Virus record (IMG/VR): IMGVR_UViG_3300045049_000286
Span: 43,981 to 107,980 of that record
DNA: 64,000 bases
Reading direction: 5' to 3' (one strand)
From: a virus
In this document: piece by piece, positions 34,072 through 42,013 of the stretch
Layout of the letters: each line of letters opens with the position of its first letter
Numbering within the stretch: position 1 is the stretch's first letter
Made by a program: the position numbers and the translations under genes
The notes under the pieces: generated by a model
Told to the model about the DNA's origin: nothing
Databases searched by the model: none
What the model saw: the letters and a program-made list of their open reading frames with translations, nothing else

Positions 34072-35145
34072 TCAGGGGGCCTGGGTGCGCCAGTCGGGTC
34101 CGAAGATGTTGGGGTGGACGCCGGTGGTGAGCAGGTTGGCGGTGTTGTAGTACTTCATGGTCATGCGTGGGTCTTCGTGGCCGACGTAGCGGGAGAGGCG
34201 GTGGATGGTCAGGACGTCTCCGGGCTGGGTCAGGCCCAGGGTGATGAAGGTGTCGCGGGCCATGTAAGGGTTGACGAGTTCGCCGGCGGCGGGCTGGATG
34301 CCGGCGGCTTCGCCGAGGCGGTAGAAGAGCCGGCGGATGCCGGAGGTGTCGAGGGCGTTCTGTTCGAGTTCCCCGGTGTCCTTGTTACGGATCTTGCGGC
34401 CGAGGAGGAACGGCCCGCTCGTGCGGCCGGCGAGGCAGCGGTCCAGGATCGGGTAGAGCTTGTAGCCGAGGTCGATGGTCTGCCAGTAGCCGCCGCCTTT
34501 CTTGACGCGCATGAGCTTGAGGGTGCGAATCTTCCCGCCGGCGCGGGTGCCGAGGTTCTCCACGCGGGCGAGGTGCATTTCCTCGGGGCGCATTCCAGTT
34601 CCGAGGAGCATGGCGACGCACAGTTCGCTGCGCGGGTGGTCGTCGCGGGCGGCCTCGTACAGGCTCCAGTACTCGTGGGGCTGGAAGATGTCCTTCGCGC
34701 CGATCTCGGCCGCGCTGCCGCGTGGCTTACGTCCGCGCTGCTTGGGGACGGGGTTGAACTGGACGAACTCGCGGTGGCGTTCGGTGAGGTAGTCGTAGAA
34801 CTGGGAGATCGCGGTGCGGGCGTGGTCCTTGTTCTCCTTGCCGTACGGGAGGCGTTCGCATTCCTCGACACAGGGTCCGGGGTGGTGGGTCCAGTGGTTG
34901 GAGGAGAGGTACTCCAGGTGCTGGTCGATGTCGTCCGGGCTGGCGTCGTAGGGGTGGAGCATGGGCCAGCGGTCGAGCCAGGCGACGTAGATTCGCAGGT
35001 GGCGGCGGTACACGCGGGCGGTCTCGGGGCTGTAGTCCTTGGTGAAGGCCGCGATCAGCTCGTGGGCTTCGGTGCGCTGGCCGGGAATGCGGATGCGTCG
35101 GGTGGCCCACGTCGGCCTGTACTCAGGACTCTGAGTGGTCGTCAT
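34072..35145 (-). CDS. tyrosine recombinase (XerC/D or integrase family)
   Basis: TGMRPEE, K, PYMARDTF, VGH.DPRMTMKYY; TACGAT 7 nt before ATG 35145 suggests leaderless start. Confidence 0.88.
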   Translation of the reverse strand: MTTTQSPEYRPTWATRRIRIPGQRTEAHELIAAFTKDYSPETARVYRRHLRIYVAWLDRWPMLHPYDASPDDIDQHLEYLSSNHWTHHPGPCVEECERLPYGKENKDHARTAISQFYDYLTERHREFVQFNPVPKQRGRKPRGSAAEIGAKDIFQPHEYWSLYEAARDDHPRSELCVAMLLGTGMRPEEMHLARVENLGTRAGGKIRTLKLMRVKKGGGYWQTIDLGYKLYPILDRCLAGRTSGPFLLGRKIRNKDTGELEQNALDTSGIRRLFYRLGEAAGIQPAAGELVNPYMARDTFITLGLTQPGDVLTIHRLSRYVGHEDPRMTMKYYNTANLLTTGVHPNIFGPDWRTQAP

Positions 35146-35212
35146 GTGCTCCATCGTAGCCTATGACGCACGACTTTTGCTGGTGTCCCAGCAGGTTGGT
35201 GAATATCCGCCA

Positions 35213-35241: not shown

Positions 35242-36729
35242 ATGGGGAGCACCGAACAGGCCGAGCGCAAGGCCCTCATCACCGACATCGTCGAGAAGGT
35301 CCTCATGGTGGTCGACGAGCTGTCAGGTCACCCATTGCGCCCGTATCAGAGGCCGTTCGCCGCACGGGTGATCGAGTCGCTGATCGTCGAGGACAGCGCC
35401 AAGATCACCGCCCTGTGGAGCCGGCAGTCCGGCAAGTCGGAGACAGTGGCCAACACCATCGCCGGATGCATGATCATGCTGCCCCGCCTCGCGAAGCTCT
35501 TCCCCGACATGCTGGACAAGTTCCGCGAGGGCCTGTGGGTGGGCGTCTTCGCCCCCACCGACGAGATGAGCGAGACCCTCTTCTCCCGCGTCGCCTCGCG
35601 CCTCACCTCCGACCGGGCCATGGAGATCTACGCCGACCCCGAGATCGACGAGAAGCTCGAAGGACGCGGCAAGGTCATCAAGATGAAGCGCTGCGGGTCG
35701 CTGGTGCGTAAGCAAACCGCGCACCCGAAGGCGGCCATCGAAGGCCAGACCTACCACATCGTGTTCATCGACGAGTGTCAGCAGGCGGACGAGAAAGTCG
35801 TCAACAAGTCCATCGCGCCGATGCTCACCGCGACCGCCGGCACGATGTGCATGACCGGCACGCCGACGTATCACAAGAGCGTCTTCTACGAGCAGATCAA
35901 GCTGAACAAGCGCAAGGCCATCAACACCCCGAACTCGGACCATTTCGAGGTCGCGTGGAAGGAAGTGGCCAAGCACTACCCGCGTTACGGCAAGTTCGTC
36001 CGCAGTGAGATGGACCGATTGGGCGAAGACAGTGACGAGTTCAAGTTGAGCTACCGCCTGGTGTGGATGCTCGACAAGGGAATGCTCGTCACCTCCGACC
36101 GGTTCGAGGCCCTCGGCGACACGTCCATGAAGACAGTGCCCGAGTTCCACAAGTCCCCCGTCATCGTCGGCATCGACCCCGCCCGCAAGACGGACTCCAC
36201 CGTGGTCACCGTCGTGTGGGTCAACTGGGACTACGCCGACGAATTCGGCCACTTCGAGCACCGCGTCCTCAACTGGCTCGACCTCACCGGCATGCACTGG
36301 GAAGAGCAGTACTTCCGGATCGTTGAGTTCCTCTCCCACTACAACGTCCACGCCATCGGCATCGACGCCGGCGGCCTCGGCGACGTCGTCTCCCAGCGCC
36401 TGCGCGTCCTCATGCCGTACGCCGACATACGCGACCTCAAGTCCGATCGCGGAGCCCAGACAAAGCGTTGGGGCCACATGATGGACCTCATGTCCAAGGG
36501 TCTTCTCGTGTGGCCGGCACACGCCAAGACCCGGCAGACCCGCAACTGGAAGAAGTTCCGCGCGCAGATGGAGGACGCGGAACTCAACTACGTGGGCCCG
36601 CACATCATCGTCGCCGCCCCGCAGGTCGACTCCGCGCACGACGACTACGTCGACTCCCTTTCCAACGCACTGTGGCTGACGGCCGAACTGCAGATGCCGA
36701 CCGCCGAGATCATCAACACTCCATGGTGA
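35242..36729 (+). CDS. terL: terminase large subunit
   Basis: RPYQ, Walker A SRQSGKS, Walker B VFIDE, TGT, nuclease GIDPA...D...HDDYVDS. Confidence 0.95.
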   Translation: MGSTEQAERKALITDIVEKVLMVVDELSGHPLRPYQRPFAARVIESLIVEDSAKITALWSRQSGKSETVANTIAGCMIMLPRLAKLFPDMLDKFREGLWVGVFAPTDEMSETLFSRVASRLTSDRAMEIYADPEIDEKLEGRGKVIKMKRCGSLVRKQTAHPKAAIEGQTYHIVFIDECQQADEKVVNKSIAPMLTATAGTMCMTGTPTYHKSVFYEQIKLNKRKAINTPNSDHFEVAWKEVAKHYPRYGKFVRSEMDRLGEDSDEFKLSYRLVWMLDKGMLVTSDRFEALGDTSMKTVPEFHKSPVIVGIDPARKTDSTVVTVVWVNWDYADEFGHFEHRVLNWLDLTGMHWEEQYFRIVEFLSHYNVHAIGIDAGGLGDVVSQRLRVLMPYADIRDLKSDRGAQTKRWGHMMDLMSKGLLVWPAHAKTRQTRNWKKFRAQMEDAELNYVGPHIIVAAPQVDSAHDDYVDSLSNALWLTAELQMPTAEIINTPW

Positions 36730-36797: not shown

Positions 36798-37193
36798 ATG
36801 GCCACATCCCCCCTCGCTCCGGACCCGGAGTTCCGCGAGAGCGCGGACCGCTTCTACGAGACGAAGACCGGCAACAACACCGCCCGCCGAGGCCCCCTGC
36901 GCTTCCAGGAAGGCTTGGGAAGCGACACCGATGTGCCGTCGGAGTTCGCGCGGGGCGCCATGCAGGGCTACGTCACCCCGCCCGGCCGCGCCAACCACAA
37001 CATGAACGTCTTCGAGAAGCCCCCGGCGGAGACCATGCGCGAGCGCGCCCACGTCGGCTCCGCCTCGTGGCCCGAGGCTCCCACCTACCTGTCCGAGTAC
37101 GCCGCCGGCGCCTCCGAGGCCGAGCAGAAGTACCTGCAGGTCGACCGGGGCGAGGGCCACCACAACCGCCACAACTACGCCCGGGTGGACTGA
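36798..37193 (+). CDS. conserved phage protein between terminase and portal
   Basis: AGGAGG RBS; RRGPLRFQEG...RERAHVGSASW. Confidence 0.85.
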   Translation: MATSPLAPDPEFRESADRFYETKTGNNTARRGPLRFQEGLGSDTDVPSEFARGAMQGYVTPPGRANHNMNVFEKPPAETMRERAHVGSASWPEAPTYLSEYAAGASEAEQKYLQVDRGEGHHNRHNYARVD

Positions 37194-37195
37194 GC

Positions 37196-37939
37196 ATGCC
37201 GGGTACGCCCACCCCGTTCGCAGGTCTCCCCCAGCCAGCCGAGGGAGACCTGCCGGACGTGCCGCACGACATCGGGGCCCTGGCTACCCGCGTAGACACC
37301 GTCCTCGCGCTGCTGTGCCAGAACACCTCCGGTTCGCCGGCAACGATGCCGACCACGGCGCAGAACCTGCTCGGTGTCGGCCCCTCGATCTCCTCCCTGC
37401 AGTCCACCCAGTCCACCCAGGCAGGGCAGATCACCACCCTGCAGGGCCAGGTCTCCACGCTGCAGACCAACACCGCGATCCTCGCGAACACCCCCCAGGT
37501 CAAGCAGCACCAGCCAAGCAGCAGCGTCACCGTAGCCAGTACCGGCATCATCAACGTGGACAACGTCACCCTGCCCACGGCCTCCTACAAGCGGCTGATG
37601 ATCTGCAACATCACCGTCCAGGCCGGCTGGACCGACTACGCCACCAAGACCCCGCTGTCGCTCCAGGTCTACGGCAACATCAACAGCCAGCCGATCTCCT
37701 TGCCAGCCATCGGCGGCCCCAGCGTGCCCGTCCAGGCCATCCAGACCAGCTTCATGTGCACCGTGCCCGCCGGGAACTCGACCTCGGACTACGTCCAATA
37801 CAACGTCCAGGTCGACCCCTACACCACGCCCCCGTCCGGGAAGTCGTTCCAGAGCTTCACCGGCCCCGGCGGAAGCCTCCTGCAGATGATCTTCATCCCC
37901 TGGAGCAACGGCCCCGACCTGATCATGCCGCACTACTGA
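37196..37939 (+). CDS. putative virion fibre-like protein
   Basis: DLPDVPHDIGALA N-terminus, heptad segment, beta-rich C-domain. Confidence 0.7.
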   Translation: MPGTPTPFAGLPQPAEGDLPDVPHDIGALATRVDTVLALLCQNTSGSPATMPTTAQNLLGVGPSISSLQSTQSTQAGQITTLQGQVSTLQTNTAILANTPQVKQHQPSSSVTVASTGIINVDNVTLPTASYKRLMICNITVQAGWTDYATKTPLSLQVYGNINSQPISLPAIGGPSVPVQAIQTSFMCTVPAGNSTSDYVQYNVQVDPYTTPPSGKSFQSFTGPGGSLLQMIFIPWSNGPDLIMPHY

Positions 37940-37975
37940 GCCGTCGCATTCGGAACCAGGAAGGGAGGTGATGCC

Positions 37976-39700
37976 ATGTCGATCGCCTTTGTCTCGCCGA
38001 GCATGAGGGCCGCCGCAAGCGACCTCACCGTCTCCGTCAGCCCCCTCGGGCTGGTGGAACTCGCAGACGAGGAGTTCGAGTTAGGTAGGTACACGGACCA
38101 CGCCTGACCCGCTACGCTAACCACTGGGCGTTCTACCTCGGCTACCACTGGGCCTACAAGCGTGAGGCCGGCGAGCCGAACATCACCGTGAACTACACCG
38201 GCGCCCTGTCCCGGTACATAACGAACTTCACCTTCGGACGCGGCGTCAACTTCATGTCCGACAAGAAGTTCGAGCACATCATCCCTGCCCTCCTCGACCG
38301 CGCCTGGACCGTCGACAACGACAAGAAGTCCACGCTGTGGCAGATGGGCGAGAACGGCTCCGTCGCGGGCGACTGCTTCGTCAAGATTGCCTACGAAGCC
38401 CCCTGGCAAGACCCGGCAGGAGGTGATCACCCCGGACGAGTGAGGATTCTGCCGCTGAACGCGGCGCAGTGCTTCCCTGAGTACCACCCCCACGACCGGG
38501 ACCGATTACCGCCTCCTCCGGTTCAAGCTCAAGTACAAGTTCTGGGGGACGAGCCTCGAAGGCACCCGCCAGGTGTACACCTACACCGAGATCATCACCG
38601 ACGAGTACATCGAGGAGTACGTCAACGACGAACTGCTCGACGCCCGTGACAACCCCCTCGGCGCCATCCCGATCGTACACATCCGCAACATCTCCATCTC
38701 CGGCTCGCCGTGGGGACTCGCGGACATCGTCGACCTCATCCCGCTGAACCGAGAGTTCAACGAAAAGGCGACCGAGATATCGGACATCGTCAACTACCAT
38801 GCCGCCCCGCTGACCATCGTCACCGGCGCCAAAGTTTCACAGCTTGAGCGCGGCGCCAAGAAGGTCATCGGGGGCCTCCCGAAAGACGCCAACGTCTTCA
38901 ACCTGGAGAACGGCGTCGACCTCAACGGGCCTCTCGCCTACCTCGACCTCATCAAGAGGGCGATGCACGAGCTGACCGGCGTCCCCGAGACCGCACTCGG
39001 CATGGCACAGCCGATCTCCAACACCTCCGGGGTGGCTCTCCAAATCCAGTTCCTGCCGCTCATGAACCGGTACGAACTCAAGAAGGTCAACTACACCCTC
39101 GGCCTCAAGCGCATCAACGAACTGATCCTGCGCACGCTCTTCCTCTACGAGCCGAACACCCTGCGCTACGACCCCGACTCCCAGGGCATGAAGACGCAGG
39201 ACGACCAGCCCGACGTCCTCGACCCAGCCGACCCGGCCGTCTACAACGTCGACATCGACTGGCCGCCACCGCTGCCCATCGACCAGCTCGTCAAGCTCAA
39301 CGAGATCCAGGCCAAGCTCGCCCTCGGCCTGGAATCCAAGCGCGGCGCGCTCCGCGAACTCGGCGTCGAGTTCGTCGACGAGAAGATGTCCGAGATCTTC
39401 GACGAGCAACTGCGCGAGGCGAAGGAGGAAGGCGCGCTCGAACTTATTCGGGCGGAAATAACCTCTGCCATCCTCCAGGCCACCGGGGTTACTCCTGACG
39501 GAGAAACTCCGACACCTGCTGCGAGCGCCACCGGCGCCTCTTCTGGAGGCAGTGCCGGCACGGAAGGCGCAGGACCCCTTCCCGGTCTCCCCGGAGTCGG
39601 GGGGACAACGGACACACAGTCGATGCTGAACGAACTCACGACCCTGTCCAAGGGCACCAAACTCGCCCAGTACAGGAATCCGGACAAAAACTCGGACTGA
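37976..39700 (+). CDS. portal protein in three segments (37976-38080, 38089-38505, 38513-39700; 569 aa joined) separated by two TTA-initiated gaps
   Basis: GGAGG RBS at ATG 37976; joined reading SPLGLVELADEEFE|VHGPRLTRY...HPHDRDR|LLRFKLKYKFWG; portal-like IPIVHIRN...WGLADI and SNTSGVAL; lies between terL and scaffold. Confidence 0.88.
38078..38091 (+). other. candidate translational bypass site 1 (GAG / TTAGGTAG / GTA)
   Basis: 8-nt gap begins with in-frame TTA and ends with TAG (2/3 match to take-off GAG). Confidence 0.7.
38503..38515 (+). other. candidate translational bypass site 2 (CGA / TTACCGC / CTC)
   Basis: 7-nt gap begins with in-frame TTA and ends with CGC, read by the same tRNA-Arg(ICG) as take-off CGA. 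Confidence 0.75.
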
Positions 39701-40583: not shown

Positions 40584-42013
40584 ATGGCATCCGGAATCAC
40601 GGGGACTCCGCTTCTGTCCCCGACCCCGACGGCGTACACCGCGTCGTCCTCGTCGATGCTCACGCCGGCGATCCAGACCATCTGGTCCAAGGAGATCCTC
40701 AAGGGTTAAGGGGACCTCGTGCGGTGACGTACGAGTAAACACCACGCTGTATCGGTGAACCCCTCCAAGAGCACGTCAGGGGAATACCGAGGGAACCCTC
40801 ACCGGGGACTCCGTAGAGACTACACGCGAGGCATCTCCAACGAGGCCGGCCGAACGGTGACGTAGGTCGGGGACTCACACGGACTGGGAGATGAAGATAT
40901 AGTCCGGTCTGCACTCGATGGCAAAGGTGCAGAGCCAGGCAGAAATGACCTGGCCCCAACTGATCGGCTTGGGTAACAAACCGCTTCCAGGCAATGCCGA
41001 TCCTGCGGTTCGAGCAGTTCATGGTCAAGAAGACCGAACTCGGAACCGCGCCCGGCCTGTCCGTGAACTTCATGAGGTATCGGGCGCTCGATGGGGCTCA
41101 GCAGCTCGTCGAGGGCGTCCGCATGGAGACCCACGCGCTGACGGCCGAGCAGATCACCATCACGGTCGCCGAGCAGGGCTTCGCGGTCGCCGTGACGGAG
41201 CTTCTCCTCAACTCCAGCTTCGACGACGTGATGGCGAGCGCAGCCCGCCTCCTGGGCCGCAACATGGCCACCTACCTCGACGGGCAGTGCCGCGACACCC
41301 TCCTGGGTGCCCCGTCGGTGCTCTACGGCTACGACAAGCTCGCGTCGTGGGCGGCCGGCGAGACCCGCACTCCTCTGTCCCCGTACGACCGTGGCATGTT
41401 CGCCGACTCCGAGGCGACCATGACCACGAACGGCGGCTTCTACTTCACGGCGGCGCTCGTCAAGGACGCCGTAGAAACTTTGGCCACGAAGAATGTCCCG
41501 CGACTCGGCGAGACGTACGTGGCCTTCGTGCACCCACACCAGAGCCGCCGCCTTCGTGACGACCCGGAGTTCATCGAGGTCACCAAGTACGCGGCGCCCG
41601 GCAATTTCATGCTGGGTGAGATCGGCCGGCTCAACGACGTCGTCTTCATCGAGACGACCCAGGTGTTCCAGGGCACGTTCAACCCGCCGCCGCCCACCAC
41701 CCAGCTCGGCACGACCATTCCGGTCGGCAACAGCCAGGTGTGGCAGGGGCAGCCTGCGCGGACGGCTTCCGGTTCGATTCCGGCGATTCCTGCGGTGACG
41801 CAGGTTCCGTCGAACCCGAACGCCCCGACCAACTCCATCTACCGCGCTCTCGTCATCGGCGACAACGCGGCCGGCCACGCGATTTCGCTGCCGGTGGAGC
41901 TGCGCGATGGCGGCGTGCTCGACTTCGGCCGTGAGCACGCGCTGGCGTGGTACTCGATCTGGGGCCTCGGCCTCATCACGGACTACGCCGTCGTGCAGTG
42001 CGCGACGAACTGA
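40584..42013 (+). CDS. major capsid protein, two exons (40584-40699 and 40984-42013; 381 aa spliced)
   Basis: AAAGG RBS; spliced IQTIWSKEIL|FQAMPILRFEQF; N4-gp56-like motifs YVAFVHP, GEIGRL..V.FIET, DFGR...AWY. Confidence 0.92.
40700..40983 (+). mobile_element. group I self-splicing intron, 284 nt, no homing endonuclease ORF
   Basis: 5' exon ends in U with U-G in P1 (UCCUC/GGGGA 40710-14), terminal G 40983, P2 with GUGA loop, P4 UCGGU/ACCGA, R AGAGACUAC 40815-23, S AAGAUAUAGUCC 40894-905, P8 CAUCUCC/GGAGAUG, three P9 hairpins. Confidence 0.93.

Follow-up and report, generated by a model that had tools for sequence, protein, structure and literature searches.

Two short UUA-led gaps split a phage portal gene into three frames and are probably crossed by ribosome hops in series

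The window analyzed here is a stretch of 64,000 bases (43981-107980) of IMG/VR virus record IMGVR_UViG_3300045049_000286, a genome of 107,980 bp with direct terminal repeats that is rated complete and has a G+C content of 67.7%. Its portal gene, located at 37976-39700 of the window on the plus strand, consists of three reading frames split by gaps of 8 nt (38081-88) and 7 nt (38506-12). A reading made from the sequence only had described this arrangement, with each gap opening on an in-frame TTA and ending in a triplet that resembles the codon before the TTA, and had proposed that full-length portal was made only by two ribosome hops in series. The coordinates were borne out by our analysis, and so was the resemblance: TAG at the end of gap 1 matches the preceding GAG at 2 of 3 bases, and CGC at the end of gap 2 is cognate to the preceding CGA, both codons being decoded by the same tRNA-Arg(ICG). 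The features of the gene, with the names used below for their proposed roles, are the following.

37963..37968, plus strand: Shine-Dalgarno (SD) motif GGGAGG, 7 nt upstream of ATG 37976, read from the sequence
37976..38080, plus strand: portal segment 1, 35 codons, M...LVELADEEFE; candidate take-off codon GAG 38078-80
38069..38074, plus strand: SD-like GAGGAG, candidate stimulator; its 3' end is exactly 6 nt upstream of the TTA
38081..38088, plus strand: coding gap 1, TTAGGTAG; putative hungry codon TTA 38081-83, candidate landing triplet TAG 38086-88
38089..38505, plus strand: portal segment 2, 139 codons, from GTA 38089 (VHGPRLTRY...) to ...HPHDRDR; candidate take-off codon CGA 38503-05
38105..38107, plus strand: TGA that would end translation after 43 aa with normal decoding of the first TTA
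38506..38512, plus strand: coding gap 2, TTACCGC; putative hungry codon TTA 38506-08, candidate landing codon CGC 38510-12
38513..39700, plus strand: portal segment 3, LLRFKLKYKFWGT..., 395 codons plus stop 39698-700; starts with CTC, in the same phase as segment 1
38647..38649, plus strand: TGA that would end translation with normal decoding of the second TTA

When the 8 and 7 nt are skipped, the 35, 139, and 395 codons join into a protein of 569 residues; the frame changes are -1 for one gap and +1 for the other. The two stops that had been predicted for ribosomes decoding either UUA, at 38105-07 (after 43 aa) and 38647-49, were both found in place.

By its match to PF05133 across the joined protein, the joined product is identified as an SPP1-type portal protein. 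Segment 2 covered positions 12-131 of the Pfam profile SPP1_portal (SPP1 Gp6-like portal, PF05133) with 22.6 bits, missing the cut-off of 25.5 when taken alone, and segment 3 covered positions 148-415 with 46.4 bits. Identity of the joined protein to annotated portal proteins was 55-63%. The closest cultured relatives were the 112-116-kb Streptomyces phages BRock, pSt2308, Alone3, LuckySocke, and GiJojo, whose portal genes are all intact, and a gapped portal was found in no isolated phage of the phage collection searched. In tblastn with the intact portals of pSt2308, Alone3, and GiJojo, EEFE was followed directly by (V/M)HGPRL and HDRDR directly by (L/M)L.FKLKY, residues being neither added nor missing. 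Across 65 intact homologues, there were 0 indels around the junctions (45 alignment columns at site 1 and 31 at site 2). The alignment without gaps that had been expected where EEFE meets VHGP and HDRDR meets LLRF was thus obtained.

Codon differences between the window and its relative L006 were counted for each segment. Synonymous and non-synonymous differences numbered 18 and 1 in segment 1, 39 and 22 in segment 2, and 74 and 36 in segment 3, and the ratios were similar in the other six relatives compared. Judged by these changes, all three segments are under purifying selection, and the ratios thus indicate that each segment is translated in its own frame. Production of portal by internal restart or from a second gene was rejected, as no in-frame start codon occurs between 38089 and 38188, the conserved N-terminus is under selection, and no other portal gene was found anywhere in the complete genome.

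Our gene call of the genome (169 genes, 31,065 codons) contained 0 in-frame TTA. When all 164 TTA triplets on the two strands of the 108-kb genome were scanned by codon bias, the two in the portal gene were the only ones that fell in a coding frame and were followed by a frame switch. The claim that no other called gene has an in-frame TTA therefore held. TTA and ATA were the two least used sense codons in the long open reading frames (ORFs) of the genome, and AGA was the fourth least used. Counts in these ORFs were 25 for TAT versus 420 for TAC, 13 for TTT versus 386 for TTC, and 88 for CGA versus 552 for CGC. No tRNA gene was found in the phage genome.

The portal gene was then compared in 80 IMG/VR loci and 15 loci in GTDB genomes. 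Short interruptions were present in 21 loci, comprising viral contigs and prophages of Streptomyces, Kitasatospora, Saccharothrix, and Actinomadura, and amounted to 32 junctions (30 outside the window) at 10 positions in the gene. Because 30 further junctions of like build recur in relatives, chance is excluded. The codon leading the gap was TTA in 27 of the 32 junctions, AGA in one (L023/L094), ATA in one (L097), and a stop in three (L015, L039, and L096). Gaps of 7 and 8 nt were the most frequent, with ten junctions each; the others measured 4 nt (four junctions), 5 nt (one), 6 nt (four, in frame), 9 nt (one, in frame), 13 nt (one), and 25 nt (one). The last triplet of the gap was cognate to the tRNA of the codon before the gap in 27/32 junctions, through the pairs GAA/GAG to GAA/GAG, CGA to CGC/CGT, CTT to CTC, TAT to TAC, TTT to TTC, CAC to CAC, TTC to TTC, and GTT to GTA; the imperfect landings were site 1 of the window and four other junctions of the family. 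Take-off codons were mostly minor NNA/NNT synonyms (CGA, CTT, TAT, TTT, AAT, GTT, and GAA), and landing codons were mostly NNC/NNG. Where the two triplets were unequal, the wobble base differed, going from weak to strong pairing, a change in the sequences that points to selection on tRNA re-pairing and not to DNA duplication. Excision from the rare codon through the last triplet of the gap reopened a frame of 554-578 residues in 13/13 rebuilt IMG/VR carriers, the window included, and SPLGLVELADEEFEVHGPRL was perfectly conserved across these 13.

Individual junctions widened the range. The site 2 gap of L006 is identical to that of the window. At the same site, L088 (a prophage of Kitasatospora sp. 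NPDC052896; 3024-3055) has a gap of 25 nt, CGA-TTACCCCTCGGGGTGATCAAAC-CGC, the longest of the series, with a CCCC/GGGG self-complement inside. Because this gap holds a TGA in the resume frame, a one-base (+1) slip is impossible in L088. The AGA-led gap of L023/L094 (2591-2604) reads CGA-AGACC-CGC, the ATA-led gap of L097 (~2621-2634) reads TTT-ATAGG-TTC, and the stop-led gap of L096 (~2621-2635) reads TTC-TAGCGG-TTC; L097 and L096 belong to metagenome bins that carry the labels Armatimonadota and Microthrixaceae. In L087, the gap measures 5 nt and the landing site is poor. Most portal take-offs lie at codons 29-56. Between HGPR and LTRY, in-frame 6-nt inserts of the form CGA-TTA-CGC (CGT in L089) were seen in L005, L008, L013, and L089; such inserts would add Leu-Arg if decoded and nothing if hopped, and they are invisible to searches for frame breaks. 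In L082 (2895-2915), the portal frame is broken by -1 in a C run that has no rare codon; this break, which was left out of the junction count, probably reflects an error of assembly or an event of another kind.

A maximum-likelihood tree placed gaps in 10/11 members of the window's clade and in three more distant lineages. Near-identical portals carried different gap sets (L005, L007, and L008), gapped L010 has the intact sister L012, and the window has both of its sites in common with L006 and not with L009, the window's own sister. Gaps are therefore gained, lost, or exchanged quickly. Their positions cluster where the portal gene is most conserved. No like breaks were present in the terminase, scaffold, and capsid genes of related loci, and none was found genome-wide elsewhere in the window's genome or in the complete relative G001. 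In the loci and the two complete genomes examined, such gaps are confined to the portal gene.

A tyrosine integrase domain (PF00589, 36.2 bits) was found at window 34141-34683 on the minus strand, inside an ORF at 34072-35160 that is divergent from the terminase gene; the large terminase beside it (35242-36729) is intact. With this integrase, and with relatives that are prophages in Streptomyces genomes, the sequences mark the phage as temperate. Isolate genomes of Streptomyces, Kitasatospora, Saccharothrix, and Actinomadura hold carriers on contigs as long as 7.6 Mb, and the clade is therefore temperate and actinobacterial.

The full-length 569-aa portal is probably made by two successive short translational bypasses, or ribosome hops. 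At site 1, peptidyl-tRNA-Glu would sit on GAG 38078-80 as UUA enters the A site. The A site would stay empty, since the phage has no tRNA genes and Streptomyces reads UUA only with the bldA tRNA, which is scarce and under developmental control. The peptidyl-tRNA would then release, the mRNA would slide by 8 nt, and the anticodon would re-pair imperfectly on UAG 38086-88, after which decoding would restart at GUA (Val) and yield the junction ...LADEEFEVHGPR. At site 2, 139 codons on, peptidyl-tRNA-Arg would quit the weakly paired CGA 38503-05 before the second UUA, re-pair on CGC 7 nt downstream, and allow decoding to restart at CUC, with ...HDRDRLLRF as the junction. A ribosome that decoded either UUA would be out of frame and would end at the corresponding TGA. 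Portal yield would likely be low and would drop as UUA-decoding capacity goes up, and virion assembly of this temperate phage could be disfavored in ageing, differentiating hyphae. Hopping, how efficient it is, and its reliance on the bldA tRNA are what we infer from the sequences. Because AGA, ATA, and stop codons take the role of TTA in relatives, the comparison indicates that the trigger principle is a slow A-site codon in general and not bldA alone. UUA as the take-off codon, with Leu inserted and the next triplet as the landing site, fits site 1 (UUA to GUA) and site 2 of L087 but fails at most others, and it was rejected because the codon before the TTA fits 27/32 junctions.

Several points weigh against two hops in series. 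The landing on TAG at site 1, the weakest point of all, is imperfect, and this triplet is a stop in the resume frame. By the window sequence alone, a +1 shift at site 2 that adds two residues (Tyr-Arg) is formally open. RNA flanking either site folded no better than shuffled sequence (z -0.64 to +1.47), unlike the report on the terminase gene of phage phiHau3. The source genome is an uncultured assembly, and a Streptomyces-type host is deduced from relatives, namely Streptomyces phages and prophages of Streptomyces and allied genera.

Ordinary programmed frameshifting, instead of hopping, would give DRDR-YR-LLRF by a +1 shift at CGA-UUA and EEFE-LGR-VHGPRL by a -1 shift after UUA-GGU-AGG. It would draw on the open +1 frame across gap 2, on AGG 38087-89, which is an uncommon codon as well, and on the SD-like GAGGAG at prfB spacing. 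However, the 2-3 extra residues would fall where the 65 homologues have no indel, and the cognate final triplet of 27/32 gaps would be left unexplained. No shift at the UUA of site 1 rescues the frame, because the resume frame contains TAG 38086-88, on or past which the P-site tRNA has to land; the -1 shift would require the UUA to be decoded first, and the slipping tRNA-Arg would pair with UAG at 1/3 positions. At site 2, CGA to GAU gives no re-pairing, and the L088 gap at this site has its TGA in the +1 frame. An open resume frame together with re-pairing 1 nt off, as in a simple +1 or -1 programmed frameshift, was found at neither site, and we consider frameshifting improbable. Bypassing is supported as the better explanation of the gaps by gapless colinearity, the stop in gap 1, the cognate triplets, the selection on all segments, and the single portal gene; on the same grounds, the earlier proposal was sustained in part, namely in that portal can be made only through two serial recoding events at the TTA-led gaps. 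Even less probable is a dead or mis-assembled gene, either as a pseudogene of a defective element or through indels wrongly introduced in metagenome assembly. The record is indeed an uncultured one, the site 1 landing triplet is imperfect, and L087 pairs a 5-nt gap with a poor landing, but synonymous changes prevail in the three segments, gap 2 recurs in the independent assembly L006, and 30 further junctions of like build come from independent metagenomes and isolate genomes. Moreover, 7-8-nt inserts led exactly by the rarest codon are no known type of sequencing error, and the rest of the genome has no broken genes when compared with the complete relative. Removal of the gaps before translation, by micro-excision, editing, or splicing at the DNA or RNA level, could be imagined from the group I intron in the adjoining capsid gene, which implies that head-gene transcripts undergo RNA processing. 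Yet no known mechanism takes out 4-25 nt, Rfam was blank at both sites, the intron ends are unlike the gaps, and homopolymer runs for transcriptional slippage are absent, leaving this explanation hardly credible.

What the hops might be for is a separate matter. The gap of T4 gene 60 is part of a mobile cassette with a homing endonuclease. The portal hops may be real and involve no sensing: the gaps would be tolerated or mildly useful and would persist because a virion requires no more than 12 portal subunits. Their rapid turnover would then come from near-neutral gain and loss or from a DNA-level benefit, such as a spoiled nuclease or homing-endonuclease target in a sequence whose protein product is not free to vary. 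The different gaps of near-identical portals (L005, L007, and L008; L010 against intact L012), the substitution of stop, AGA, and ATA for TTA, and the concentration of gaps in the gene's most conserved stretch all fit this explanation, as does the T4 gene 60 cassette (compare also bioRxiv 10.1101/2022.08.31.505936). On the other side, no HNH or GIY-YIG gene lies near the portal gene, the sole HNH_3 gene (G000:29826-29960) being 52 kb off, and selection on decoding is suggested by TTA being almost the sole trigger in Streptomyces-type genomes, by the temperate lifestyle, and by a codon design that goes from weak to strong pairing. We regard hopping that senses nothing as a serious possibility, short of an even chance. 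A true sensing role of the gaps is similarly doubtful, and a bldA link to the developmental state of the host is plausible. The two hops could form a double gate on head assembly set by host state, or could control portal stoichiometry, and both ideas gain some plausibility because the phage is temperate. In a broader and rather speculative reading, portal codons 1-~56 and ~175 in the clade would hold a fast-turnover library of bypass cassettes with one grammar: a weak NNA/NNU take-off, a stop or one of the rarest sense codons of the host in the A site, a spacer of 0-22 nt, a strong cognate landing, and a prfB-like SD at one hot spot. The cassettes would then act as an inverse sensor of bldA tRNA that gates virion assembly by host state, their number (1-3) tuning the gate; if this were true, portal would be made only while UUA is unreadable.

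The closest known system is the phiHau3 terminase, and its recall as a precedent by the sequence-only reading was correct in that two TTA-led 10-nt gaps are described there (PMC10732093). Bypassing of these two UUA-led inserts in the absence of bldA tRNA was proposed by Smith et al. 2013, as cited in PMC10732093. Antonov et al. 2023 (PMC10732093) counted 3/100 terminase genes of the phiHau3 type with 4 sites (phiHau3, StrepC.1 and S. catenulae prophages). Full-length phiHau3 terminase was detected in S. coelicolor, and in E. coli, with UAA replacing UUA, mass spectrometry revealed a junction peptide; the absence of indels in homologues was used as an argument there as well (PMC10732093). The terminase g6/g7/g8 and the portal gene share frame-breaking inserts led by an in-frame UUA in a genome otherwise free of UUA, two serial sites in one essential packaging or head gene, an early stop if UUA is decoded, the invocation of a landing codon and an SD-like element, and a temperate phage with a host that is, probably also for the window, of the Streptomyces type. 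The window itself showed the exactly abutting flanks, the UUA-led inserts in a UUA-avoiding genome, the matching landings (cognate at site 2, 2 of 3 bases at site 1), and the early stops that characterize the phiHau3 type. Unlike in phiHau3, the portal gene is gapped here and the terminase gene is intact, the gaps measure 8 and 7 nt versus 10 nt, and significant flanking RNA structure was not found. In addition, the portal family has 32 junctions at 10 positions, AGA, ATA, and stop triggers, and in-frame variants, versus the few sites of the terminases.

Bypassing in T4 gene 60 resembles that proposed for the portal gene in its take-off beside a slow A-site codon, its re-pairing on a matching landing codon, its protein colinear with uninterrupted homologues, and its early take-off (codon 46 in T4). 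It differs in its 50-nt gap, take-off stem-loop, and stop: the portal gaps span 4-25 nt, no stem-loop was detected, the usual trigger is a sense codon, and no homing endonuclease is adjacent. The window's gaps thus showed none of the traits of the gene 60 type, namely a gap of ~50 nt, a stem-loop at take-off, and a stop after it. The +1 frameshift of prfB (RF2) is like site 1 in having an SD-like element 6 nt before a slow A-site codon and in requiring release of the P-site tRNA; it also gauges how much of the A-site codon's decoding factor is available, which may be a further likeness to the portal gaps. Whereas prfB shifts by 1 nt, the step needed here would be 8 nt at site 1 and 7 nt at site 2, and the resume-frame stop in gap 1 bars a simple slip. 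Hops over hungry codons reportedly occurred in the E. coli reporters of Weiss et al. 1987 and of Gallant and Lindsley 1998, and the byp elements described by Lang et al. 2014 in the mitochondria of Magnusiomyces capitatus reportedly measure 27-55 nt. The reporter hops share with the portal sites short-range re-pairing of peptidyl-tRNA on a cognate codon with a starved A site, and the byp elements share the abundance of fast-evolving gaps in one lineage. Unlike the reporter constructs, the portal sites are natural and lie in an essential phage gene; they are much shorter than byp elements and are concentrated in one gene.

UUA-type bypassing has previously been published only for a few Streptomyces phage terminase genes, and its probable extension to portal genes is new: portal genes are unmentioned in PMC10732093, and a full-text literature search found no report of a gapped portal gene. 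To a literature of four sites in three terminase genes with partial experiments, the portal adds a second essential gene family, for which the comparative data are far richer than those on terminases. The 32 junctions form a natural mutant series from which trigger codons, take-off and landing tRNAs, the limits of gap length, and the weak-to-strong wobble preference can be read by comparison alone. Because several of the carriers are prophages of strains that are named and in culture, such as Streptomyces mangrovi CGMCC 4.7117, Streptomyces sp. HMX87, and Actinomadura atramentaria DSM 43919, the proposed hop and its bldA dependence can be tested directly. Gapped portal genes are at present split or labelled as pseudogenes in annotation.

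The sequence preceding gap 1 was also compared among relatives. GAC GAG GAG was present in 5/5 carriers of the site 1 gap versus 2/27 other high-GC relatives, most high-GC non-carriers having GAA at one of those codons; as these sequences are related, the association of GAGGAG with the gap is suggestive. The distance of 6 nt between the SD-like element and the slow codon is the spacing of the prfB frameshift site (quoted in PMC10732093), and by this analogy GAGGAG probably helps the hop at site 1. No Rfam family matched at either gap. A homing endonuclease adjoining the portal gene was rejected as a candidate, given that the upstream ORF (within 37067-37939) has no nuclease match and that the HNH_3 gene is distant.

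In the major capsid gene, a group I intron was recognized at window 40687-40932 on the plus strand (Rfam RF00028, 41.6 bits, E 2.9e-8; the gathering score of 50 was not reached). The capsid gene of relatives has 1-3 group I introns elsewhere in the gene, scoring 44-72 bits in Rfam:

L013, 5198-5439, 5744-5996, and 6698-6955: capsid group I introns
L005, 3717-3974 and 4943-5196: capsid group I introns
L007, 6075-6352: capsid group I intron

With capsid introns and portal gaps, the head genes of the clade are therefore interrupted in two different ways. An origin of the gaps as remnants of group I intron deletion was rejected, the ends of the capsid-gene introns being unlike the gaps. Between the terminase and portal genes, the ORF at window 37067-37939 on the plus strand had no family match and encodes Ser/Thr/Gln-rich repeats (STQSTQAGQITTLQGQVSTLQ). 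This ORF is fast-evolving: its identity is 29-44% in relatives in which the last portal segment is 73-80% identical.

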